Virus record (IMG/VR): IMGVR_UViG_3300017739_000004
Coordinates: 1-64,000 of that record
DNA: 64,000 nucleotides
Source of the DNA: a virus
Strand: one strand, 5' to 3'
Below, one piece after another: positions 32,048-52,330 of this stretch. Within the stretch, counting starts at the first letter, position 1, and every line of letters begins with the position of its first letter. Both the position numbers and the translations under genes were made by a program. A model generated the notes under the pieces. The model saw nothing but the letters and a program-made list of their open reading frames with translations. It was not told the origin of the DNA and searched no databases.

Positions 32048-32596
32048 ATGAATATTTTTATTTTAGATAATGACCCAGTGATCGCAGCTCAAATGCAATG
32101 TGATAAACACGTAGTCAAAATGATAGTAGAATCGGGACAAATGCTTTCAACAGTACATAGAATGCTTGATGGTAAAATGGAACGAAGACTATCTAAGTCT
32201 GGAAAAGTAAGAGTACAATATTGGAAGCTAGATGATGATAGAGAGAATGTGTTATATAAAGCATGTCATTTTAATCACCCAAGCACTGTATGGACTAGAG
32301 AATCAATGTATAATTATAGATGGCACTATAAACATTTTATAGCTTTGTGTGATGAGTACACATATAGGTATGGTAAAATACATGCCACAGATAAAAAACT
32401 AAGAGAACCTTTAAGTAAATTACCTAATAATATACCAGTAAAAAAGATGACACAATTTAAATTAGCGATGGCATCAAATCCAGAATGTATATTCGAGGAT
32501 CCAATAAAATCCTATCGTGCATTTTATAAAACCAAAGAAGCAAGATTTAGTATGGTATGGACAAAAAGAGAAACACCTAATTGGTTTAGAGTATAA
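32048..32596 (+). CDS. Pyrimidine-dimer DNA glycosylase (DenV-like family)
   Basis: MNIFILD, DKHVVKMIVE..QMLST, NHPSTVW, EYTYRYGK.H. Confidence 0.75.
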   Translation: MNIFILDNDPVIAAQMQCDKHVVKMIVESGQMLSTVHRMLDGKMERRLSKSGKVRVQYWKLDDDRENVLYKACHFNHPSTVWTRESMYNYRWHYKHFIALCDEYTYRYGKIHATDKKLREPLSKLPNNIPVKKMTQFKLAMASNPECIFEDPIKSYRAFYKTKEARFSMVWTKRETPNWFRV

Positions 32597-32604
32597 ATAT
32601 TACA

Positions 32605-32856
32605 ATGATATACGAATTTAAAAATACAAAAACAGATGAAGTATTTGAATTGGTTATGCCATTAGCTGAATTAGATGATTATTTAAAAAACAATCCACAT
32701 ATAAAAAGGCATCATTCATCTGCACCTACCATATCGTATAGTGGTGAAGCAAGTAAAGGTGTATTAAACAGAGCAGGTGATGGTTGGAAAGAAGTTCAAG
32801 ATCGTATTAAAAGCGGATTACCACCAAAAGACAAACACAGGATAAAAACAAAATGA
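32605..32856 (+). CDS. FmdB-like small protein
   Basis: YEFKN..T.EVFE..M; TATAAATA at 32592. Confidence 0.6.
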   Translation: MIYEFKNTKTDEVFELVMPLAELDDYLKNNPHIKRHHSSAPTISYSGEASKGVLNRAGDGWKEVQDRIKSGLPPKDKHRIKTK

Positions 32857-36004: not shown

Positions 36005-36999
36005 TGGGTGTCAAAGGTAGTGGAGAATTAAGATTTCCAGATCACGAGAACGAAAGTACTGGTCAAGATATAACAGAAGAATTTGGACCAGATGGTTCAT
36101 CTAATACAAACATAAGTTTAAAATCTTTTTATAAAGGTGGTAGTAGAGTACCAAATATAACTGAAAATAGTAATGTACCTACATCAGGTGAAATATCATT
36201 AAAAGATTTTTATAATGCAGCTGATTTAAGTTTTGATGGTAATTCATCTGGAACAACAGGTAATTTCAGCTTTGCGGCCGCTGATTTAATTCCAGCAGGT
36301 AATGGACATCCTAATTTTGATATGAATTCATCAGGTACGGCTGGTATAAGTAATACATGGGAAATGCAAAATAGAACAACACAGGCTAATCCACCTCCAG
36401 CCTTTCCATCAAGTAATTCTGCAGCCCTTTCAACTGCAACTATTCATATTGGAAACGATCAAACGAATAAAAGAATTCTATTACTATTATTAAAAGATGG
36501 TTCACACGCTGTTCAAGCTGGTGGATTAAATGGTACTAACGCATCATATAGAGTATTACCTTATGTTGGTTTAGAAAATGCTACATGGACAGCTAAAATA
36601 GAATATAATTCTAATGGTGGGGGATATGATAGTACTAATAGTACAATAGGAACATATAATGGTGCAACTAATAGTATATTAACTTATAGTACATCTTCAG
36701 CATTTCATACACTACCAACTGCAGATACATTTCTTAGTGTGCCATCATTTACTGGAATGGCAGCTGATGGAGAAAGCATAATTTCAGATGGAAGTTCAAG
36801 ACAATTTACTTGGGCTGCGAAGGTAGCTGGTAATCTCAGTAGTACTGCATCTAACACAGGTTCTGGTACAGTTTCAGGTGGACTTTCAACGACAGGATGT
36901 AGAATTACTATAAAAGCTGTATCAGGTAGTGATACATTTCAAACTGTATCTGATTATTGGGAAATAGGTTTATCAACTCAAAAAGGTGGATTAGAATAA
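36004..36999 (+). CDS. Ser/Gly/Thr-rich virion fibre or decoration protein
   Basis: ISL..FY repeats, PTSGEISL, low-complexity beta-rich body. Confidence 0.6.
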   Translation: MGVKGSGELRFPDHENESTGQDITEEFGPDGSSNTNISLKSFYKGGSRVPNITENSNVPTSGEISLKDFYNAADLSFDGNSSGTTGNFSFAAADLIPAGNGHPNFDMNSSGTAGISNTWEMQNRTTQANPPPAFPSSNSAALSTATIHIGNDQTNKRILLLLLKDGSHAVQAGGLNGTNASYRVLPYVGLENATWTAKIEYNSNGGGYDSTNSTIGTYNGATNSILTYSTSSAFHTLPTADTFLSVPSFTGMAADGESIISDGSSRQFTWAAKVAGNLSSTASNTGSGTVSGGLSTTGCRITIKAVSGSDTFQTVSDYWEIGLSTQKGGLE

Positions 37000-38228
37000 T
37001 GGCAGTTCCTAGTTCAGGTACATTAACAATGTTAAAAATCTTTTCAGAAAAAAATGAAAACGATTATGATGCAAATAATGCTGATGGAGAAAGTTCATTT
37101 AGTTTAACCGGGTTAAGTAGTAATTCTACGAATGATAGTTCAGGTGGTAATATTAATCTCAATAGTGATGGAAGCCCAGGTCCTGATGGAAACACTCCTC
37201 ACTCAATGAGTGAGTTTTATAATTATGACCAAGACTTTATATATTGGGGAACTAACATTGGTGTAGGACAAGCATGGGGTAATCAAACCGGTACAAATGC
37301 TTCTACTGCATTAGCTGGTTGTACCATAGGTTTTGCTTTTCAACCTGCAAATAATAGAGTTAGATATAGAACAAGTAATTTTAGTAATTCAGTAGCTACT
37401 AGTTATTCTTTTAGTAATATAACTTATAATACAACAACTGATCCAGACCAATGTGAATTCCAAATAACATTTTCAGGAACAAGTTTTGGTTCAGGTTCAA
37501 CATCATTACCAGTAGGTCTTACTAGTGGAACTTTCCAACAAATGGCTAAACAAAGTAGCTCAAGTGATACAGGGTCATTTACAGATAACACATGGTCAGT
37601 GACCAAAACTAGTGGTAGTGGTAGCAGGTCTTATAGTACTAATGGTGGCACTAACCCTTCATGGAGTGTACGAGCAAAAAATTCTAGTGGAACTGTTCTT
37701 GCAACAAGTCTTTCATCAAATAATAATCAGATTAGTCTAACTGCTACTAGAAGTAGTGGTGGTGGATTCCCAGGATTTCCAGGTCCGGGTGACTTTTGTA
37801 TACATGAAGATATGTTAGTCAATACAGAATTAGGCCCAATGCATATCAAAGAAGTTGTAGATAGAGACCCAAAACTATGGGCATACAATTGGGATAAAAA
37901 ACAAAAAGAATTAGTAGATCAAGTTAAAGTTTTATTAGTAGAACATGATAATTTATATATTATTAATAATGAATTTAAGATAACAGAAGATCATATTATG
38001 TATGGTGAGAATAATGAAACATATTCTATAATACCAGAACTTGCTTTGAAAAATTATGGTAAACACTCACAAGAATTAAAGGTTGGTGATAAACTAAGTA
38101 CTTTAAGCGGTGATAAATATATAGTGAATACCATAGAAAGATATGATGGTATGCATTTAACTTATACTATTAGTACACAATATAATAATTTTTATGCTAA
38201 TGATATATTAGTTGACTCGGAGATATAA
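36999..38228 (+). CDS. Fibre-like protein with C-terminal Hint domain
   Basis: MAVPSSG/PHSMSEFY N-terminus; CIHEDMLV, ITEDH, LKVGD, NFYANDILV. Confidence 0.75.
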   Translation: MAVPSSGTLTMLKIFSEKNENDYDANNADGESSFSLTGLSSNSTNDSSGGNINLNSDGSPGPDGNTPHSMSEFYNYDQDFIYWGTNIGVGQAWGNQTGTNASTALAGCTIGFAFQPANNRVRYRTSNFSNSVATSYSFSNITYNTTTDPDQCEFQITFSGTSFGSGSTSLPVGLTSGTFQQMAKQSSSSDTGSFTDNTWSVTKTSGSGSRSYSTNGGTNPSWSVRAKNSSGTVLATSLSSNNNQISLTATRSSGGGFPGFPGPGDFCIHEDMLVNTELGPMHIKEVVDRDPKLWAYNWDKKQKELVDQVKVLLVEHDNLYIINNEFKITEDHIMYGENNETYSIIPELALKNYGKHSQELKVGDKLSTLSGDKYIVNTIERYDGMHLTYTISTQYNNFYANDILVDSEI

Positions 38229-38399
38229 TGAAATCTTATATAGTCACATGTACTTATACATCAGATGGTGGTGGAACAGCAAAACAATATATGATTGGAG
38301 AAGATTATGAAGAAGGTACAACAGAATATGAAAACGAATTAGCCCGTCTGACTGCAGAAGCGCAGGTGGGTTATGATAATTATGATAACGGAGTATAAT

Positions 38400-38840
38400 A
38401 TGAATATAGAACAATTAAAAGAAACACTGAAAATTGATGAAGGAGTAGTTTATGAAATATATAGTGACCACCTTGGTTATCCTACATTCGGTATTGGTCA
38501 TCTTGTCCTTGAAGGAGATGAAGAACATGGGAAGTCGTTGGGCACTCCTGTATCCGAGGCACGAGTTGATGATTGCTTTGAAAAAGATGTAGAATATGTT
38601 TTAAATGATTGCAAAATCTTACACGAAGATTTTGATAATTATCCAGAAGAAGTCAAGCAAATAATTGCTAATATGATGTTCAATATGGGAAGAACAAGAT
38701 TAACTAAATTTAGAAAACACAATGCAGCATTACAAAAAGGTGATTGGAAAACTGCAGCTATCGAAGGACGAGACTCAAGATGGTACAAACAAGTGACAAA
38801 CAGAGCCGAGAGGCTGATGAAAAGACTAGAGGAAGTGTGA
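38400..38840 (+). CDS. e: T4-type lysozyme (GH24) endolysin
   Basis: DEG..Y.DHLGYPTFGIGH, NMMFNMG, DSRWYKQV..RA. Confidence 0.9.
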   Translation: MNIEQLKETLKIDEGVVYEIYSDHLGYPTFGIGHLVLEGDEEHGKSLGTPVSEARVDDCFEKDVEYVLNDCKILHEDFDNYPEEVKQIIANMMFNMGRTRLTKFRKHNAALQKGDWKTAAIEGRDSRWYKQVTNRAERLMKRLEEV

Positions 38841-39195: not shown

Positions 39196-39462
39196 ATGGC
39201 AAGCACATTAAAATTATTAGGGTCGGAAGCGGCTTTAAGTACAACTGCTAGTAATGTCGGAAGAGCTAAACTTGTAAGAGTATTAAATACAGATACAACT
39301 GCTAGATTAGTGACTGTAAAAAGTGGTTCTAATACTATAGGTACTATAACACTTGCACCATCTGAAGTACAAAATATTATGAAATTACCAGCTGAAACTT
39401 TAGAAGTAGCAACGGCAGCAAGTACAAAGGTAAAAGCAGTAAGTATAGCATATACTAATTAA
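39196..39462 (+). CDS. Small beta-rich virion-type protein
   Basis: Coupled late ORF. Confidence 0.55.
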   Translation: MASTLKLLGSEAALSTTASNVGRAKLVRVLNTDTTARLVTVKSGSNTIGTITLAPSEVQNIMKLPAETLEVATAASTKVKAVSIAYTN

Positions 39463-39956
39463 TGGCATATTCAAAAGAGGTCACCGAGAGATTTTATGGG
39501 GTCTTAAATAATCCTCAGAGTTTTTCTGTGGGAAGATTCGACCCCAAAGCGCCTAATGTCGCTACAGGAATGACCGGTGCTCCAGCTTGTGGAGATGTCA
39601 TGAAGCTACAATTAAAGCTGAACGAAAAAGAAGAAATAATCGATGTTAAATTTAAAACATATGGTTGTGGTTCAGCTATAGCATCATCTACAATGTTTGT
39701 AGAAATGCTGAAAGGTAAAACTGTAGAAGAAGCTAAAAAGATTAAAGATCGTGATATAGCAGAAGCTTTAGATTTACCACCAATCAAATTGCATTGTTCT
39801 GTTTTAGCAGAAGATTCTATTAAGAAAGCAATAGAAGATTGGGAAAGCAAAAAACATAGGCAGCATAATTATCAAACTTATCCAACAACAGAGCATGACG
39901 AATCAGATGATTTAGAAGCTGCCAAGAGAGTTGATAATGTCGGAAACACTGATTGA
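39462..39956 (+). CDS. iscU: Fe-S cluster scaffold IscU
   Basis: GAPACGDVM, KTYGCGSAIASS, LPPIKLHCS. Confidence 0.95.
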   Translation: MAYSKEVTERFYGVLNNPQSFSVGRFDPKAPNVATGMTGAPACGDVMKLQLKLNEKEEIIDVKFKTYGCGSAIASSTMFVEMLKGKTVEEAKKIKDRDIAEALDLPPIKLHCSVLAEDSIKKAIEDWESKKHRQHNYQTYPTTEHDESDDLEAAKRVDNVGNTD

Positions 39957-40317
39957 ATTAACTGATGAAGCAATTAAAAAACTTCTTCAAAAAAAAGACC
40001 AAGAACGATTTAATTATATACGGCTTGGGATCACAGGTGGAGGTTGCGCTGGTTTTGAGTATATCTTTGATTCTGTTGTTAATAAGTCTGTTGACGACAT
40101 AGTATTAGACTTTGGTAAATTACAATTCGTAGTCGATAAAGTTTCCATACCATATCTATCTGGTATGACTTTAGACTTTGAAAAACAAGGACTAAATGAA
40201 GTCTTTGTATTCAGAAATCCAAAAGAAACATCAGCCTGTGGTTGTGGTGTTTCTATCAATTTTGATCTACAAAAAGTAGAAGAAGATAATTCCAAGATAT
40301 TTGCGATCGAAGTATAA
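39937..40317 (+). CDS. iscA: A-type Fe-S carrier (IscA/HesB)
   Basis: GGGCAGFEY, NP....CGCG.S. Confidence 0.92.
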   Translation: MSETLIELTDEAIKKLLQKKDQERFNYIRLGITGGGCAGFEYIFDSVVNKSVDDIVLDFGKLQFVVDKVSIPYLSGMTLDFEKQGLNEVFVFRNPKETSACGCGVSINFDLQKVEEDNSKIFAIEV

Positions 40318-40322
40318 TTTAT

Positions 40323-40330
40323 TATAAATA
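40323..40330 (+). promoter_or_regulatory. T4 late promoter of the curli/cyclase operon
   Basis: TATAAATA. Confidence 0.75.
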
Positions 40331-40354
40331 GATTATATAATAATTAATAATATT

Positions 40355-40651
40355 ATGGAAGACATATTTACTTTAATATCAGACGTGGGATTGCCAATCG
40401 CAGGAGCTTTGGTCATGGGTGTCTTTATATTCATAATTATAAAACAAATAATGATGGGTATAGTAGATAATATCAGAACTCTTACTATGTTTTGCGAATC
40501 TTTAGAGAATCGTGCTAGAACTATGAGTAATGAAATGATTAAAATAGATATGTTAGTTAGCAGTGCATTAGAGTTAAGACCAGATATCGATAGAGTAGCA
40601 AGAGCTGAAAATTTTATTGAAGATGGTAAACTTGATGTGAGGAGAGATTAA
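40355..40651 (+). CDS. Single-TM coiled-coil protein (YvrJ-like N-terminus)
   Basis: ISDVGLPIA followed by a TM segment. Confidence 0.55.
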   Translation: MEDIFTLISDVGLPIAGALVMGVFIFIIIKQIMMGIVDNIRTLTMFCESLENRARTMSNEMIKIDMLVSSALELRPDIDRVARAENFIEDGKLDVRRD

Positions 40652-40947
40652 TGGATGTACAAATCACAGAAGCTGATTTTACTATTGTTTCTCTAATCAC
40701 TGACTATGGCTTTCCAACTGTAATGGTAGTTGGGTTAGGATATTTTGTCTATTTCGTATGGCAATTTATTAATAATAATATCGAGCCAGAAATAGAAAAG
40801 ATGCATTTCCAATTAATAAAAGTGATTGACCAAATGAGAATGTTGGACCAAGATTTAATTAGGCTTCAACAAAAAGTAGATGTAGTTTTAGAATATAAAG
40901 AGAATGAAAAAAAGAAACGAGGAGAATTGGGAAAAGATGAAAAGTAA
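40651..40947 (+). CDS. Single-TM coiled-coil protein, paralog-like of the preceding gene
   Basis: ITDYGFPTV followed by a TM segment. Confidence 0.55.
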   Translation: MDVQITEADFTIVSLITDYGFPTVMVVGLGYFVYFVWQFINNNIEPEIEKMHFQLIKVIDQMRMLDQDLIRLQQKVDVVLEYKENEKKKRGELGKDEK

Positions 40948-41443
40948 TTTAGAAGTTGCTGGATTAATTGCTATATTTGGTTTATCTTTGTATGGCGTAT
41001 CACCTGCAATGTCTGCAGATGAAATTGTACATAAGTTCAAAAATCCATCATTTAGTGGAGTTGGTACAGGCGCACATTATCTTACAATAGAAAACCAGGA
41101 ACATTCCAGAAAAAAAGCGATCGAAGATGCACTTGAAGCTGCAAAGAATGCTGCTGAAAGAGAGGCAGAGAATTCAACTCTTGCAAAATTTATTAGAAAC
41201 CTAGAGAGTAGAATATATGCTCAATTTGCTAAACAATTAGTTGAGTCAATGTTCTCTAATGATAACCCTGCGGGGTTTGGTTCTTTTATTTTAGAAGGTA
41301 ATATAATCACATGGGAAGTTGTCACAGATGAATCAGGTGCAGAGTTTATTAGATTGACAGTTGTAAGTGAAGATGGAACAGAAACAGTAATTGAAATACC
41401 TGTAGGTACAGGAAACTTTGGACAAGACCCAGATAATGGTTAG
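40937..41443 (+). CDS. csgF: Curli assembly protein CsgF-like
   Basis: Signal peptide; KFKNPSFSG; F..NLESRIYAQ; C-terminal TVIEIP. Confidence 0.8.
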   Translation: MKSNLEVAGLIAIFGLSLYGVSPAMSADEIVHKFKNPSFSGVGTGAHYLTIENQEHSRKKAIEDALEAAKNAAEREAENSTLAKFIRNLESRIYAQFAKQLVESMFSNDNPAGFGSFILEGNIITWEVVTDESGAEFIRLTVVSEDGTETVIEIPVGTGNFGQDPDNG

Positions 41444-42368
41444 AGTACTTTTAGCATCATTAATAATTTTAAGTGGTTGTGCTTCGATACCGAAGTGGTC
41501 GGACGATCCACAAGATTGTAAGATACCAAAGATTGTTGATGTAGTCACGGCTGTACAAAAAGTTTTTGAAAGAAAATACATTTGTGTAGATATGCCAGAG
41601 GTTGTTAACTTACCTGCTTATATACAATTATTAGAATTACCACCACCAACAATTGAAAAACCAGTTGTTGCAGTATATAGTTTTTTAGATAAAACGGGTC
41701 AAAGAAAAGCAAGAGAAGGTATAGCAGATTTCTCAACAGCTACGACTCAAGGTGGAGTAGAATTATTAGTAGACGCTCTAAAGACAGCCGGAGGTGGCAC
41801 ATGGTTTAGAGTTGTTGAAAGACAAGGCGTAGATCATCTAGTTAGAGAAAGACAGATTATCAGAAGCGCTAGACAAGAGTTTGCAGGTGATAATGGCCCG
41901 CAACCTTTAAACCCTTTATTATTCGCAGGAATGATTATAGAGGGTGGAATAATTGGTTATGATACTAACATAATGACGGGAGGTCGGGGCGCACGAACTC
42001 TCGGTATTGGTTATGCGAAACAATATCGTAAAGATGTTGTGACTGTTTCGGTTAGAGCTGTTTCAGTTCTGACTGGTGAAGTATTATTAAACGTCCAAGC
42101 TCGTAAGACTATTTTATCTTATGGGTCAGGTGGTGATATCTTTCGTTTTATAGAGGAAGGTACTCAACTAGTAGAATATGAGGACGGTGTGGGAAATAAT
42201 GAGTCGGTGACATATGCAACACGAGCAGCAATTGAAGCTGCGGTGTTGGAATTAATTTACCAAGGCCACGATCGTGGTTATTGGAATATAAGTGATGGGC
42301 ATCGCCATCCACATCTTAATGATGGGGTAAACGATAAACATCAATTAGAGGAGTACGAAAATGAATAA
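41436..42368 (+). CDS. csgG: Curli secretion channel CsgG lipoprotein
   Basis: Lipobox LSGC; VAVYSFLDKTGQRK, FSTATTQG, WFRVVERQG, LVRERQIIR, EGGIIGYD. Confidence 0.93.
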   Translation: MVRVLLASLIILSGCASIPKWSDDPQDCKIPKIVDVVTAVQKVFERKYICVDMPEVVNLPAYIQLLELPPPTIEKPVVAVYSFLDKTGQRKAREGIADFSTATTQGGVELLVDALKTAGGGTWFRVVERQGVDHLVRERQIIRSARQEFAGDNGPQPLNPLLFAGMIIEGGIIGYDTNIMTGGRGARTLGIGYAKQYRKDVVTVSVRAVSVLTGEVLLNVQARKTILSYGSGGDIFRFIEEGTQLVEYEDGVGNNESVTYATRAAIEAAVLELIYQGHDRGYWNISDGHRHPHLNDGVNDKHQLEEYENE

Positions 42369-43098
42369 ACTTTTAAGTATAGCATTGCTATTGTCGACTA
42401 CTTTTGTTTTCGCACAAGCCACTGATGATAACGAAATTAAGATCACACAATCTGGTGATACCTTAAAATTATATGTAGACCAAATCGGTTTTGGAAACAA
42501 AATCGGCGGTGATGACGCTTCAGGCGGTTCACTATCTGCTATGACTATTACAGGTAGTTCACTAGAGTTTGATTTAGATTTTACTGGTAATCAAAACGTT
42601 TTATTTGGACCAGTCGAAGCTGATAGTTCTTACTATAAGCTCGATTTTACTGGTGATTCAAACAAAATAGATTGGAATATTGGTTATATCGGAAGTGCTG
42701 ATGATTCAAACATTAACTTTGATGTGACAGGTGATTCTAACGAATTTGACCTAGATCAAGGTTATGTTGCTAGTGCAGAAAGATTAGATGCTGATTTAAT
42801 TTTAATTGGTAGTTCAAATATATTTGACATAGACTGGGAAAGTGATGATAACGTTTGGGACTTTGATATTACAGGAGATTCAAACAATATTAACACATTA
42901 CAAAATGACGGCGAACACAATCTTGAGTTCACTTTAGTAGGTGATTCAGCTGACGTCGACATTAATCAAATATCTGGTACATGTGCAAGTGGAGCAGGAA
43001 CAAGTTGTGTTTCACCAAATGCAAATATTGTATTAGATGTGACTTCAGACAATGCAATCATTCAACTTAATCAACAAGATTCGTCTAACGATTCTTAA
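42361..43098 (+). CDS. Secreted curlin-like beta-solenoid protein
   Basis: Signal peptide; repeats such as QIGFGN, TGDSN (three copies), IGSSN. Confidence 0.7.
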   Translation: MNKLLSIALLLSTTFVFAQATDDNEIKITQSGDTLKLYVDQIGFGNKIGGDDASGGSLSAMTITGSSLEFDLDFTGNQNVLFGPVEADSSYYKLDFTGDSNKIDWNIGYIGSADDSNINFDVTGDSNEFDLDQGYVASAERLDADLILIGSSNIFDIDWESDDNVWDFDITGDSNNINTLQNDGEHNLEFTLVGDSADVDINQISGTCASGAGTSCVSPNANIVLDVTSDNAIIQLNQQDSSNDS

Positions 43099-44161
43099 TT
43101 TATTACTCATTAGTGGGTTTGCTTTTTCTAGCGAACCCATTGGTGGTATTAAAGAATCTATTGGCTATGGTGGAATTACAAGAGATGATGAAACTTATAA
43201 CCATGATGTCGGATTAGAAATTCAACTTAACGATCAAGCTGAAACAGCAAATGGTCGTATGCTTATAGAGTTCTTAGACGATGCAGAACTCCAACTCAAA
43301 GAACATTCAAGGGTTTTAATAGATACGGTTTATTACGATCCAAACCCAAACCTATCAAAAATGACTATGCGTATGGTCAGTGGAACAGCAAGATTTGCAT
43401 CAGGTTCTAAGGGTTTAATTAATAAAGCAAACATAGAAATATCAACACCAACCGCTACAATTGCTGTAAGGGGCACGGACTTCACCACAACAATAGATGA
43501 AATTGGACGAAGCCTTGTTATCTTATTACCTGACGATAAGGGAGAACCTTCAGGTGTTATTGAAGTCACCAGTTTAGGTGGAACAGTTGTATTAGATGAA
43601 GCTTATGCAGCCACAATGGTGTCATCTTATGATTTACCACCAACAACAGAAACCGTAATTCAAGGTATAACACCTGCACTGATTGATAATATGTTTATTG
43701 TGAATCCACCAGAGGAGGTGAAAGAGGCAGTAGAAGAACAATTAGCCGATGAACAAAACGAAGATCAAGGAATATTAGATATAGATTTATTAGACTTTAC
43801 TGAATTAGAAGAAGATGAACTAGAAGAAGATGACTTAGGTGAGTTTAATGAATTAGATATTGATGAATTAGATGTAGAGTTTTTAATAGATGTTTTAGAC
43901 ATTGTAGATTCTGGTGATCTATTTGATACATTAGGTGAGTTTGATATTCAAGGCGCAACAAGAGGATTTAATGATGAATCACAATATAATGTCTTTTTAA
44001 GAAATGGTGATTTAGTATTTTATAGAAATGTAAATGGTGTAATAGAATTACAATTCGAAGCTGGAGGTAGCTTTACCTTAGACACAGATACTCCAACATG
44101 GTCAGGTATAATTACTGGTAATGATGGAGAAGATATAATAGTAAGGATTAGACAGTTATAA
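43052..44161 (+). CDS. FecR-domain periplasmic protein with acidic linker
   Basis: Hydrophobic N-terminus; F.DDAEL.L..HS, TPTATIAVRGTDF. Confidence 0.85.
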   Translation: MQSFNLINKIRLTILNLLLISGFAFSSEPIGGIKESIGYGGITRDDETYNHDVGLEIQLNDQAETANGRMLIEFLDDAELQLKEHSRVLIDTVYYDPNPNLSKMTMRMVSGTARFASGSKGLINKANIEISTPTATIAVRGTDFTTTIDEIGRSLVILLPDDKGEPSGVIEVTSLGGTVVLDEAYAATMVSSYDLPPTTETVIQGITPALIDNMFIVNPPEEVKEAVEEQLADEQNEDQGILDIDLLDFTELEEDELEEDDLGEFNELDIDELDVEFLIDVLDIVDSGDLFDTLGEFDIQGATRGFNDESQYNVFLRNGDLVFYRNVNGVIELQFEAGGSFTLDTDTPTWSGIITGNDGEDIIVRIRQL

Positions 44162-44169
44162 ATAAAACT

Positions 44170-44847
44170 ATGAATAAGAACTTCCATTACAATTTCGTAC
44201 CACTATTAACAACTATGTTTATGTTTCTTGCATTTGATTTAGTTGCTGGTCCTACAGACGATAATCATATTCACGTCGAACAAGTAGCTGATGGTGATAA
44301 TATAGAATTAAATATATCTCAAATAGGTTTTGCAAATAGCATAGAATTTTCATTTGCGCATTCAGGTAATGTATTTAATCTTCAACAAAATGGTAATGGT
44401 AATAGCATATCATGGGTGTCATATTGGGGCTCAGGTAAATCATGGGGTGGAGATGTTGATGGTTCTAATAACACAGAAAATATAATTCAGTATGATGGTG
44501 CAACTTATGGTAGACATATATGGGGTGATGAAAATATTGTAGATGTTTATCAACATGGAAATCATACACACAATTTAGACATTCACGTTGATGATGTCGA
44601 ACATGACTCATGGCAAGATGGTGCTGGGTCGCATTATAGTCATGTATATTATTATGGTAATTCAGATGGTTCAATAACTAATCTTAAACAAGAAGGTACA
44701 GGAAATCATAATGCACAAGTAGTTTTATATGGAAATTATTTAACAACACTTAATGTTTTACAACAAGGGTCAAATAATCAGTCATATAATTTAACACAAA
44801 ATTGTCAAACAGTAGGTGGATGCACAGTTAACGTCACACAAGATTAA
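44170..44847 (+). CDS. Secreted His-rich curlin-like protein
   Basis: Signal peptide; QxGxxN repeats (QIGFAN, QNGNGN, QEGTGN, QQGSNN); TATAAATA at 44157. Confidence 0.75.
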   Translation: MNKNFHYNFVPLLTTMFMFLAFDLVAGPTDDNHIHVEQVADGDNIELNISQIGFANSIEFSFAHSGNVFNLQQNGNGNSISWVSYWGSGKSWGGDVDGSNNTENIIQYDGATYGRHIWGDENIVDVYQHGNHTHNLDIHVDDVEHDSWQDGAGSHYSHVYYYGNSDGSITNLKQEGTGNHNAQVVLYGNYLTTLNVLQQGSNNQSYNLTQNCQTVGGCTVNVTQD

Positions 44848-46685
44848 TGAAATATATTACTTCGGTATGGTCTACATTATTACTCGTATCAGCTCTGATA
44901 TTAATAAGAGTTTATGATCCAGCAATAGTCGAGCAAGTCAGGCTCAATACATTCGATCAATACATCAAAACACTTCCAAAAGAAAAATCAAATGATATAG
45001 TACTTGTTAATATCGGTGAGAAATCACTTGGTAAGATTGGTCAATTTCCATGGCCTAGACAAGAATACGCACAAATGATTTCTGACCTAAGAAATATTAA
45101 TGCTGGCTATATTGGATTTACTATAATGTTTCCAGAACCAGATAGATTTGGTGGTGACGATATATTTGCTCAATACATACAAGACAATGGGATTATCTTA
45201 TCACAAGACGCAGATAACAATGGAAGGGCCGACAGTGCACCGTATGTAGGGCATGCACTATTTGGTACATCAGACCCTTTAGATTTTATATACAAATATA
45301 ATGGTATAGTTGCTAATATTAAGAATTTAGAACAAGAGGCATGGGGTATAGGATTAATAAATGCATCACCTGAAGTAGATAATATCACTAGAAGAATACC
45401 ACTTATGACAAATGTAAAAGATGAAATCTATCCATCTTTTGCTTTAGAATTAACTAGATTAAATATGGATCAGTTATCTTATACTATAAAATCAAATGAA
45501 GCAGGTATAGAAAGTGTAGTAGTTAGACCTTTTGAAATACCTACAGATAGTGATGGTTCAATATGGTTAAAATGGAATACAGAATTTGAAGAAATAGAAT
45601 ACGAAAGGCTAATGCCAGGGTATGATAATTTAGAAGGTAAGACTGTTATAGTCGGTGTATCAGCCAGTGGATTAGGTGCTCAGATTCCTACTCCTGGTGG
45701 TTTGATGAATCCAAACCAGCTTCAAGCCGCAGCTCTTCAAACAATTCTGTCAGACAATCCGATTTCTCGTCCTCTATGGGCTGATTCAATAGAAATTCTT
45801 GTAAGTGGAATTCTGGCTCTGTTGTTAATTCTGTTGATATATCGCGCACCGATTTGGGCTTCAGGACTCGGCTTCGTTGTTCTTTGTGTTGGACAAGCCG
45901 GATTGACTTTTTATATCTGGAATAAATTTTATATACTCCTCGATCTTAGTTATTCACTAATATTATATATAATATCTTTTGCTTCAACGAGTTTTAATAA
46001 CTTCTATAAACAATTTGCTCTTAGACAACAGATAAAGAAACAATTTGAAACATATTTGGATCCAAGACAAGTGGCTCTATTACAAAAAGACCCAAGCAGA
46101 TTAAAGCTTGGTGGTGAAAGAAAAGAAATGACTTTCTTGTTTATGGATATAGTAGGATTTACTCCTATATCAGAACATTATAAAAATAATAATGACCCAG
46201 AAGGGTTAGTAGAAATTATAAATAATTATTTAAACCGTATGACCAATATTATCTTAGACAATGGTGGTACTATTGACAAATATATGGGTGATTGTATAAT
46301 GGCCTTTTGGAATGCTCCATTAGACTGTGAAGATCATGCATACCTAGCTACTAAAACAGCTATGGAAATTGAGAGAGCAGCAGATGAACTTATTAAAGAA
46401 CTTGAAGATAAAGGCTTACCACGTATTGATGTTGGTATTGGTATTAATTCCGGGACTTGCATCGTCGGAAACATGGGATCCGAAACTAGATTTGACTATT
46501 CCGTCATTGGAGATGCCGTCAACTTGGCAGCTAGACTCGAAGGCCAAACACGCAATTACGATGGGGTTCGAGTGTTGTTGGGCGAACAAACATATAAAAG
46601 CTGTTCATCTGGAGAATTCACTGAAGTCGATAGAATCAAAGTTAAAGGTAAATCCGAACAGGTTAGAATATATACCCCAATTTGA
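44847..46685 (+). CDS. CHASE2-domain class III adenylate cyclase
   Basis: GQFPWPR and FPEPDR (CHASE2), three TMs, FMDIVGFT, IDKYMGD, VGNMGS, DYSVIGDAVNLAARLE, VKGK. Confidence 0.94.
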   Translation: MKYITSVWSTLLLVSALILIRVYDPAIVEQVRLNTFDQYIKTLPKEKSNDIVLVNIGEKSLGKIGQFPWPRQEYAQMISDLRNINAGYIGFTIMFPEPDRFGGDDIFAQYIQDNGIILSQDADNNGRADSAPYVGHALFGTSDPLDFIYKYNGIVANIKNLEQEAWGIGLINASPEVDNITRRIPLMTNVKDEIYPSFALELTRLNMDQLSYTIKSNEAGIESVVVRPFEIPTDSDGSIWLKWNTEFEEIEYERLMPGYDNLEGKTVIVGVSASGLGAQIPTPGGLMNPNQLQAAALQTILSDNPISRPLWADSIEILVSGILALLLILLIYRAPIWASGLGFVVLCVGQAGLTFYIWNKFYILLDLSYSLILYIISFASTSFNNFYKQFALRQQIKKQFETYLDPRQVALLQKDPSRLKLGGERKEMTFLFMDIVGFTPISEHYKNNNDPEGLVEIINNYLNRMTNIILDNGGTIDKYMGDCIMAFWNAPLDCEDHAYLATKTAMEIERAADELIKELEDKGLPRIDVGIGINSGTCIVGNMGSETRFDYSVIGDAVNLAARLEGQTRNYDGVRVLLGEQTYKSCSSGEFTEVDRIKVKGKSEQVRIYTPI

Positions 46686-47016
46686 TTTCATAGAACCAGC
46701 ACATTGGACATCATACGCAGTATCTTTTGCATTACAATATGCCGATATTCATTATACTAATAAAGCTTTACAATATCAATGTGTACGTGAGCTTAATCCT
46801 TTAGTTGGTAAAAGACCATCATGGAATCATTTAGTAGCTCACAAGGTAATTACATTGTGGCCTGTGTATCACCCAGACTTTAATAAGTATCCAATCACTG
46901 ATAAAGACTTAAATCAAGTTAATGTGTTTATGGCCATTGTTGTATTACATAATAAAAGAGTGCTTGAAAAAGTGCAAAGACACCCAGATATCTGTCCTAA
47001 GATTTCTACTATTTAA
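46429..47016 (+). CDS. Hypothetical protein overlapping the cyclase 3' end (start uncertain)
   Basis: Signal-like MLVLVLIPGLASS; AD..YT...ELNP motif. Confidence 0.5.
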   Translation: MLVLVLIPGLASSETWDPKLDLTIPSLEMPSTWQLDSKAKHAITMGFECCWANKHIKAVHLENSLKSIESKLKVNPNRLEYIPQFDFIEPAHWTSYAVSFALQYADIHYTNKALQYQCVRELNPLVGKRPSWNHLVAHKVITLWPVYHPDFNKYPITDKDLNQVNVFMAIVVLHNKRVLEKVQRHPDICPKISTI

Positions 47017-52091: not shown

Positions 52092-52330
52092 CAGAAATAA
52101 TTGAAGAAAAAATAATGACTAAAAAAAGATTTTCACTTGCAGTTGAGAGTTTAGTATCTAGTCATAAAATGAATTATATAGATGCAGCTGCGCATGTAGT
52201 TCAAGAAAGAGGATTAGATTACAGGTCTATGAAAAGACTTATGACAGATTCTCTAAAAGCAAAAATAGAAGCAGAAGCTAAAAGCTTAAATTTATTAAGA
52301 GTAAAAAAAACTAATAAATTACCAGTATGA
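52088..52330 (+). CDS. 33: Late transcription coactivator gp33
   Basis: FS..VE..V..MNYIDA..LKAKIEAEA..LNLL; synteny 33-59-32. Confidence 0.88.
   Translation: MTEIIEEKIMTKKRFSLAVESLVSSHKMNYIDAAAHVVQERGLDYRSMKRLMTDSLKAKIEAEAKSLNLLRVKKTNKLPV

Follow-up and report, generated by a model that had tools for sequence, protein, structure and literature searches.

A viral curli cassette joined to a FecR-fold protein and a CHASE2 adenylate cyclase in a T4-like marine phage

The 64-kb window analysed here (positions 1 to 64,000) is the first part of a 102,948-bp virus record in IMG/VR (IMGVR_UViG_3300017739_000004; CheckV completeness 61%). The window is AT-rich, with approximately 33% GC, nearly all of its genes as far as 54 kb lie on the plus strand, and the nearest named relatives of the phage are the T4-like Pelagibacter phage HTVC008M and the Methylophilales phage Melnitz. 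At 40355-46685, on the plus strand, eight abutting or overlapping open reading frames (ORFs) encode two small transmembrane (TM) proteins, TM1 and TM2, followed by CsgF, CsgG, a curlin-like protein (Cur1), a FecR-fold protein, a second curlin-like protein (Cur2) and a class III adenylate cyclase with a CHASE2 domain. A contiguous eight-gene run of this kind had been proposed from the DNA letters and their ORFs alone (hereafter the original prediction); all eight ORFs were found where they had been placed, with identities backed by Pfam or by relatives. The genes overlap by 1-47 nucleotides (nt), or by about 8-11 nt when the starts supported by relatives are used, and one junction is an 8-nt gap. 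The cassette is real and intact but not new: it is another copy of the curli region that Wittmers et al. (2022, PMC9599517) published for pelagiphages. Its features are as follows (aa, amino acids; AF2, AlphaFold2; pLDDT, predicted local distance difference test).

40323..40330, + strand: TATAAATA, T4-type late-promoter motif, exact, 32 nt 5' of TM1
40355..40651, + strand: TM1, 98 aa, acidic at the N-terminus, with a single TM helix and a tail that is helical and coiled-coil-like (phrog_18771, 2.6e-25)
40651..40947, + strand: TM2, a paralog that aligns with TM1, with a Lys/Glu-rich tail (phrog_18771, 1.6e-24)
40937..41443 (start in the ORF list 40904), + strand: CsgF homolog with a signal peptide (PF10614, 1.2e-11; phrog_35372, 1.5e-36)
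41436..42368 (listed TTG start 41418), + strand: CsgG homolog, outer-membrane lipoprotein pore (PF03783, 3.7e-49)
42361..43098, + strand: Cur1, an acidic secreted protein of the curlin-repeat type; repeat length about 23 residues, Cys pair at the C-terminus
43052..44161, + strand: FecR-fold periplasmic protein, 369 aa, with a signal peptide (PF04773, 1.2e-9; AF2 pLDDT 73.6)
44157..44164, + strand: second TATAAATA, exact, overlapping the FecR stop and ending 5 nt before the Cur2 ATG
44170..44847, + strand: Cur2, secreted His-rich curlin-repeat beta-solenoid, 225 aa, with a C-terminal C..GGC pair
44847..46685, + strand: CHASE2 class III receptor adenylate cyclase (PF05226, 9.8e-44, residues 16-328; Guanylate_cyc PF00211, 6.7e-21)

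The proteins of the cassette

For both secretion genes the relatives favour starts downstream of the listed ones, the ATG at 40937 over 40904 for CsgF and the ATG at 41436 over the TTG at 41418 for CsgG. The CsgG protein has a lipobox, LSGC, that is conserved in most relatives, and it matches the E. coli CsgG structures at 4.5e-46 over 228 residues; the E. coli constriction residues Y51, N55 and F56 align to R, D and F, respectively, in the phage protein. The mature N-terminus of CsgF, ...EIVHKFKNPSFSG (FKNPSFSG), carries a motif conserved across relatives, which we take to resemble the CsgG-inserting segment of E. coli CsgF. Judged by sequence and fold, the two phage proteins are shown to be capable of forming an outer-membrane channel. 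In a homolog search with CsgG, only phage variants were found among the 120 matches listed, and one CsgG cluster named 'Saprospirales bacterium' (P0059) may be a phage fragment mislabelled as bacterial.

Signal peptides, a conserved pair of C-terminal Cys residues and invariant Q/G/N columns at intervals of approximately 23 residues are common to Cur1 and Cur2. Cur1 is strongly acidic (isoelectric point 4.05, 43 D+E versus 7 K+R), and Cur2 contains 13 His in its 225 residues. The window Cur1 gave a sub-threshold match to the Pfam family Curlin_rpt (3e-3) and the window Cur2 gave none in the Pfam scan, while the family was matched by 17/29 of the Cur1 relatives and 13/27 of the Cur2 relatives (best Cur2 value, 3.4e-9). 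Hidden Markov models (HMMs) of the phage Cur proteins match genes adjoining bacterial csgG, and the eight of these that were scanned are genuine curlin-repeat proteins (2.7e-9 to 4e-83). The AF2 model of Cur2 (pLDDT 75.9) is a stack of 7-8 strand-turn-strand units. It aligns with CsgA structures 8c50 (Z 15.2, 22% identity) and 8enq (Z 11.2, 25% identity), the highest identities among generic beta-helix matches, while Foldseek found no match for the model at E<=0.001. Since CsgA is one of many generic beta-helix matches, the fold alone is insufficient, and we base the curlin identity of Cur2 on the repeat homology. The two proteins are likely substrates of the CsgG/CsgF channel.

Like bacterial curli operons of the alphaproteobacterial type, the cassette combines a CsgG lipoprotein pore, a CsgF with the conserved mature N-terminal motif and curlin-repeat subunits. 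The nearest CsgG from a bacterium shows about 50% identity and has csgF and curlin genes as neighbours. Unlike bacterial curli operons, it has no CsgE, CsgC or CsgD: none of these Pfam families was found at E<=0.1 among the nine ORFs of 40355-47016, in agreement with the proposal that no csgE-like gene is present. The exchange of the constriction Tyr and Asn for Arg and Asp is a further difference from the bacterial operons, as are the curlin-like proteins themselves, which are very divergent and end in Cys pairs. We know of no such C-terminal pair in E. coli CsgA.

The FecR-fold protein consists of a FecR-type domain (residues ~30-220), an acidic disordered linker (~219-292; 33 D+E, 1 K+R) and a small beta domain (~295-369). 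A cleavable-looking signal peptide leads directly into the FecR fold. Residues 58-213 of the model superimpose on the PupR periplasmic signalling domain 6ovk with Z 15.9 and a root-mean-square deviation of 2.4 over 134 residues, and 4m0n was matched with Z 13.7. This part of the protein therefore has the fold of the periplasmic C-terminal signalling domain of FecR/PupR anti-sigma regulators. Unlike in FecR/PupR systems, we found neither a cytoplasmic anti-sigma domain nor, in the mature protein, a helix that spans the membrane. The scan of the cassette ORFs and their near neighbours gave no Sigma70 (FecI-type) or TonB-receptor Pfam domains, that is, no gene for an extracytoplasmic function sigma factor or a TonB-dependent transducer. 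Because the anti-sigma domain is missing, we regard the product as a FecR-domain protein rather than a FecR anti-sigma regulator. The model contains no beta-barrel; its C-terminal domain is all-beta and spans about 75 aa, and the C-terminal 80 residues gave no usable match in the atlas. The RTX-adhesin anchoring domain 5ix9, found with Foldseek, was considered as a match for this domain and rejected, as a second aligner placed it on residues 27-122, within the FecR-type domain, with Z 7.0, a weak echo.

The cyclase has an N-terminal TM segment (residues 5-22), a periplasmic CHASE2 domain, hydrophobic segments at ~316-385 and a cytoplasmic catalytic domain, the segments being read from the sequence. 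It matches solved structures 6fht (4e-34) and CyaB 3r5g (1e-32) and was also aligned to 2w01. Residues D434, D482, K478, R548, N559 and R563 are retained, with no or almost no variation across 32 phage sequences. Both metal-binding Asp residues, the Lys and the N..R pair that had been proposed are thereby borne out, but the Asp of the 'DYSV' motif is not the second specificity residue: the alignment to CyaB 3r5g ('DYTIIG') assigns that position to the conserved S552, the equivalent of the class IIIb Thr. The Lys at 478 argues for ATP as the substrate. By sequence and fold the active site is shown to be intact.

TM1 and TM2 share a common outline, with an acidic N-terminus, a single TM helix and a helical, coiled-coil-like, highly charged tail; the original prediction had listed them as two TM coiled-coil proteins. 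TM1 has no Pfam family, and its neighbours in the atlas are virus-only unnamed clusters. An exhaustive profile search placed 952 clusters in the TM1/TM2 family; the best 150 listed are of 74-209 aa except for one 553-aa repeat match. The published label for these genes is histidine kinase ('HK'; PMC9599517). Neither HisKA/DHp nor HATPase_c was matched in Pfam at E<=0.1, and a 38-member TM1/TM2 profile run against the PDB returned no kinase at E<=10, only insignificant coiled-coil proteins. The kinase label is therefore not supported by what we could read from these proteins. A holin-like outline is possible, but no holin family was matched in Pfam, PHROGs, the atlas or the PDB profile search. 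PHROGs assigns all cassette genes except Cur1 and Cur2 to phage families of unknown function.

Linkage in phages and in bacteria

The original prediction held that csgF and csgG were known in SAR11 and OM43 myophages, with unclear function. The csgFG genes are indeed published, but that account is incomplete, as the whole cassette was described by Wittmers et al. (PMC9599517). The full 'viral T8SS region' (type VIII secretion system) of that paper comprises one or two small 'HK' genes, CsgF, CsgG, CsgA/B, FecR, a second CsgA/B and a cyclase; CsgE is missing, the genes have alphaproteobacterial affinities and the distribution is ocean-wide. Alphaproteobacterial curli operons are also reported there without CsgE, and hosts of the lytic phages are reported to lack curli genes. 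Two other studies (Zaragoza-Solas et al. 2020, PMC7029224; Buchholz et al. 2022, PMC9004378) deal with csgFG only, and their main texts do not mention the cyclase, FecR or CHASE2. The gene order of the window is identical to that of HTVC008M (KC465899) and Melnitz (MZ577097), again with no csgE or csgD, and as in the pelagiphage region the cassette lies between replication and structural modules in a variable region of a T4-like marine phage. Identities to HTVC008M are 44% for the cyclase and 52% for CsgG, and the Melnitz cyclase is 36% identical. Both phages are in culture with a host, HTCC1062 for HTVC008M and H5P1 for Melnitz. PMC9599517 makes no mention of CHASE, NsrA, promoters or transmembrane topology. 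To its description we add that the cyclase sensor is a CHASE2 domain, that the 'HK' genes encode 98-aa proteins without a kinase domain, that a conserved late-promoter motif stands at the cassette head, and that we read the FecR protein as half of a FecR/CHASE2 signalling pair rather than as an iron regulator.

We examined conservation of the cassette in two IMG/VR sets, one anchored on the cyclase and one on CsgG. Since each set comprises the closest 80 relatives, the loci are not independent samples. The original prediction had named separation of the cyclase and FecR genes from csgFG in related genomes as the observation that would count against it; what we found was co-occurrence throughout. 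In the cyclase-anchored loci with at least 5.2 kb of upstream DNA (cyclase identity 46-76%), tblastn located csgF, csgG and FecR in order in 34/34, and all seven partners in 32/34. In the CsgG-anchored loci, the cyclase was present in 36/36 of those with enough downstream DNA and FecR in 50/50 of those with 3 kb. The cassette genes form one conserved unit, as these counts support.

Bacterial genomes gave a different arrangement. The bacterial CsgG set, the 20 closest to the phage CsgG from a 400-genome sample of one phylum (identity up to 51%), consists of ordinary curli operons, with a CsgF HMM match beside CsgG in 13 and curlin-like ORFs nearby in 17; neither FecR nor a cyclase lay within ~9 kb in any of the 20. 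For the CHASE2 cyclase we collected the 80 nearest bacterial relatives of the phage enzyme (33-40% identity), from marine Alphaproteobacteria, SAR86 and others. In the genuine loci among these 80, neither CsgG nor CsgF lies close to the cyclase. Two short phage-like contigs in metagenome-assembled genomes are excepted. Labelled 'Rhizobiaceae' (L163) and 'Saprospiraceae' (L173), they carry a phage-type cyclase, joined in L173 by a curlin-like gene, with 40-55% identity to the window, and both look like phage fragments binned into bacterial genomes. On the other hand, a FecR-domain ORF was found within 10 kb of the cyclase in approximately 20 of the 80 loci, several of them abutting. This is far above background, as FecR genes number 1-6 per genome, or ~0.02-0.03 per 20 kb. 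A FecR-domain protein next to a CHASE2 cyclase is a recurrent, pre-existing bacterial pairing, which these frequencies support. Unlike in the bacterial CHASE2 loci, of which 0/80 show it, the phage FecR/CHASE2 pair is joined to a curli secretion module. Because the two modules are separate in the bacteria examined, we consider the cassette an interleaved merger of a curli operon and a FecR/CHASE2 pair.

Many of the bacterial CHASE2 cyclases have HlyD/ABC genes, of a type I secretion-like kind, beside them. At one locus (L233:1500-14571), in the AT-rich genome of a streamlined marine alphaproteobacterium, the CHASE2 cyclase is accompanied by an ABC exporter, a fusion of HlyD with a cyclic nucleotide monophosphate (cNMP)-binding domain, a small cNMP-binding protein and a 1,026-aa protein with a FecR domain and RTX repeats. 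A DUF1538 protein and a P-II-like protein are encoded there too, and similar genes occur in L212 and L224. From its gene content the L233-type locus looks like a type I secretion locus controlled by cyclic AMP (cAMP). RTX repeats were present in 4/11 of the FecR neighbours examined, one of which also has a BapA-type prefix domain, and HlyD-type genes were found near 23/56 of the larger bacterial CHASE2 loci. We infer that in bacteria, too, a secretion channel and an exported repeat protein frequently go with the FecR/CHASE2 pair.

NsrA provides a genetic precedent for signalling from the outer membrane to a cyclase. This outer-membrane protein is genetically required for the signal-dependent production of cAMP by the CHASE2 cyclases CyaK, CyaD1 and CyaD2 of Sinorhizobium meliloti (PMC7529298, PMC13001267), a CyaD1 construct without CHASE2 gives constitutive cAMP (PMC5498481), and a cluster in Campylobacterota combines a FecR outer-membrane protein with a CHASE2 cyclase (PMC9239204). 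As in the NsrA/CyaK-type systems, the phage encodes a FecR-domain envelope protein beside a CHASE2 class III cyclase. Garnerone and colleagues are said to have noted in 2018 that NsrA itself carries a FecR domain. Unlike NsrA, an outer-membrane beta-barrel protein of ~1,200 aa, the phage protein has 369 aa, in which a FecR fold is followed by an acidic linker and then by a small beta domain.

Late-promoter motifs and neighbouring genes

The two late promoters that had been placed at 40323 and 44157 are both exact copies of TATAAATA, and they fare differently in relatives. Window-wide the motif is weakly enriched, with 22 copies observed versus 15 +/- 4 expected, so that the count alone proves little and the evidence is carried by position. 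At a distance of up to 100 nt upstream of the first cassette gene TATAAATA was found in 59/92 distinct relatives, compared with 0-9% before the seven internal genes. The motif at 44157, on the other hand, is kept at its position in only 6/114 relatives and is therefore lineage-specific at best. A homolog of the Melnitz gene annotated as a late-transcription coactivator is present in the window at 52097-52300 (E 2.7e-8, 35% identity). An ORF at 32605-32856 was considered for this role and rejected in favour of that homolog. The positional conservation of the motif and the coactivator homolog make it well supported, as a reading of the DNA, that the cassette is transcribed late from one promoter at its head.

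The commonest geometry at the cassette head in relatives is TATAAATA-N5-ATG. The same arrangement occurs in the window at 32592 and 44157 and in many relatives (e.g., L010:5228, L013:5392), and it offers no space for a leader or a Shine-Dalgarno sequence. This geometry suggests that leaderless or near-leaderless late mRNAs may be made in this phage group.

Metatranscriptome libraries contain short contigs identical to the window over csgF, csgG, Cur1, FecR and Cur2, in agreement with the reported expression of viral curli genes in metatranscriptomes (PMC9599517). The RNA runs contain only 5-15% of the sampled words and are stored as contigs that give neither transcript ends nor strand nor level, so parts not covered are uninformative. 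As carry-over of DNA is possible, we treat the match as weak evidence.

A possible ninth gene follows the cyclase: 46687..47016 on the + strand is a conserved frame of ~109 codons directly 3' of the cyclase stop. It is 30-50% identical in about 20 relatives, where it also stands directly after the cyclase stop, and it has no Pfam family. In this window no ATG, GTG or TTG was found in the frame after the cyclase stop; if it is a ninth gene of the cassette, it would have to start in an unusual way. The conservation of its upstream part, inside the cyclase gene, probably just mirrors conserved cyclase DNA.

Immediately 5' of the cassette, at 39462-40317, are genes for Fe-S assembly proteins of the IscU type (NifU_N, 1.4e-39) and the IscA type (Fe-S_biosyn, 7.9e-16). 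In some relatives (L004, L008, L014, L019, L081) one or both of these genes were located by tblastn between Cur2 and the cyclase. At 38373-38840 there is a gene for a phage lysozyme that stands on its own (PF00959, 2.9e-8), 1.5 kb upstream of the cassette. Many relatives have a lysozyme gene within a few kb of the cassette, upstream of it in one clade and ~4 kb downstream of the cyclase in another. At 36957-38228 lies the gene for a 423-aa protein without a Pfam or PHROG family, the C-terminal part of which appears Hint/intein-like by eye.

Readings of the cassette

Taken together, these observations allow us to address what the cassette does in the infected cell. We think it probable, with considerable room for doubt, that it is a late-transcribed viral curli operon that rebuilds the envelope of the infected cell, in which the FecR and CHASE2 proteins link the outer membrane or cell surface to cAMP. 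CsgG and CsgF would form the outer-membrane channel, and the two Sec-exported curlin-repeat beta-solenoid proteins would be its likely substrates. The periplasmic FecR-fold protein would modulate the CHASE2 domain, by analogy with NsrA and CyaK in Sinorhizobium, and in this way cAMP synthesis would respond to an event at the outer membrane or cell surface. As the genes alternate curlin, FecR, curlin, cyclase, the triggering event would probably be connected with the pore or with the secreted curlin-like proteins and their state. With no cNMP-binding domain encoded in the phage record, the targets of the cAMP would be proteins of the host.

The original prediction of a trans-envelope sensing circuit is plausible and partly supported, by synteny and by analogy. 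The conserved unit, the late promoter at its head, the bacterial FecR/CHASE2 pairing and the NsrA precedent speak for it, while an input from pore or curlin is suggested by gene order only, and the uses that it offered, namely superinfection sensing, lysis timing and host aggregation, are conjectural.

Several further points weigh against this reading. The NsrA analogy is partial because the phage FecR protein has no outer-membrane barrel. No cAMP receptor was found in the phage record when it was searched for cNMP-binding domains. If the C-terminal Cys pair of Cur1 and Cur2 is oxidised in the periplasm, a narrow pore may be difficult for these proteins to pass. For every copy of the cassette, secretion, fibres and cAMP are so far predictions, and Buchholz et al. 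saw cells infected with Melnitz form no clumps (PMC9004378). FecR and the cyclase are not always part of viral curli regions, the cyclase and the second curlin gene being rarer in the Podoviridae copies (PMC9599517), so the pore and fibre part can persist without the cyclase; the existence of such cassettes is known from that paper, our own sets covering the 80 closest relatives.

The same cyclase-less cassettes favour the view that curli production is the whole point, with a surface amyloid that aggregates cells ('sibling capture') or shields the infected cell from other phages, and with FecR and the cyclase only regulating export (Wittmers et al.) and sensing no external cue. CsgG, CsgF and two curlin-repeat proteins that bear signal peptides make up a complete minimal set, and it is in ordinary curli operons that the nearest bacterial relatives of CsgG are found. 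However, the bacterial FecR/CHASE2 pair occurs without curli genes and so is not a curli regulator by origin, and the location of the cyclase's sensor domain in the periplasm implies that the input comes from outside the cytoplasm. What is more, how cAMP would reach the curli genes by a transcriptional route is unclear in a late lytic operon when the host has no CsgD-type regulators (PMC9599517) and the phage no cNMP-binding protein, and the lack of clumping with Melnitz (PMC9004378) does not fit aggregation. We consider this view rather unlikely.

A more specific form of the link between surface and cAMP is suggested by the association of bacterial FecR/CHASE2 pairs with HlyD/ABC genes, by the RTX fusions in 4/11 FecR neighbours and by the one locus with an HlyD-cNMP fusion. 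By analogy with these, the phage FecR protein might be a tethered reporter. Its FecR domain would touch CHASE2 in the periplasm, its acidic linker of ~70 residues would occupy the CsgG channel, and the surface would display either its C-terminal beta domain or the curlin-like fibres, so that the cyclase would read channel occupancy, or pulling or binding at the surface. We hold this arrangement to be doubtful. If it were true, FecR plus CHASE2 would be a general device that connects a secretion channel or adhesin to cAMP, and the phages would have re-plugged it from a type I to a type VIII channel.

A role in lysis or envelope permeabilisation, as put forward by Buchholz et al. (2022), would have the CsgGF pore, possibly with TM1 and TM2 as holin and antiholin, time or assist lysis while the cyclase reports the state of the envelope. 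The late promoter heading the cassette, the small size, single TM helix and highly charged tails of TM1 and TM2, and the lysozyme gene 1.5 kb upstream (38373-38840, PF00959), with counterparts on either side of the cassette in many relatives, are consistent with such a role. But CsgG lies in the outer membrane and so cannot depolarise the inner membrane as a pinholin does, no holin family matches TM1 or TM2, and known lysis systems make no use of curlin-like, FecR or cyclase genes. The gene order, including the 'HK' genes, is moreover conserved in both Podoviridae and Myoviridae, from which transfer of the whole module has been inferred (PMC9599517), and this argues against generic holins of the phage's own. 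We find a lysis function improbable.

Least of all do we expect the cassette to serve nutrient or iron import, an idea raised in PMC9599517 in which an ungated CsgG admits cofactors or siderophores and FecR is a regulator of the iron-citrate type: the missing CsgE gate, the naming of FecR after the ferric-citrate regulator and the IscU/IscA-type genes directly upstream (or, in some relatives, between Cur2 and the cyclase) would suit it, but the FecR protein is secreted, with a signal peptide and no cytoplasmic anti-sigma domain, the scan of the cassette ORFs and near neighbours revealed neither a Sigma70 (FecI-type) nor a TonB-receptor domain, and the bacterial relatives of the FecR protein pair with CHASE2 cyclases and RTX/type I secretion system genes, not with iron uptake genes, which together make import highly improbable.

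The value of this particular window is modest, as it adds one more intact copy of a published module. What is new here is the recognition of FecR/CHASE2 as a pre-existing bacterial pair, often beside type I secretion-like genes, the failure of the HK label and the conserved late promoter. Viral curli genes were detected at 65/65 of the ocean stations examined (PMC9599517), and the phages that bear the cassette infect SAR11 and OM43, which count as some of the sea's most abundant bacteria. A pore and a receptor cyclase supplied by a phage to such streamlined hosts would mean that infected cells sense or signal something at their surface, which could bear on aggregation, superinfection and the timing of lysis.

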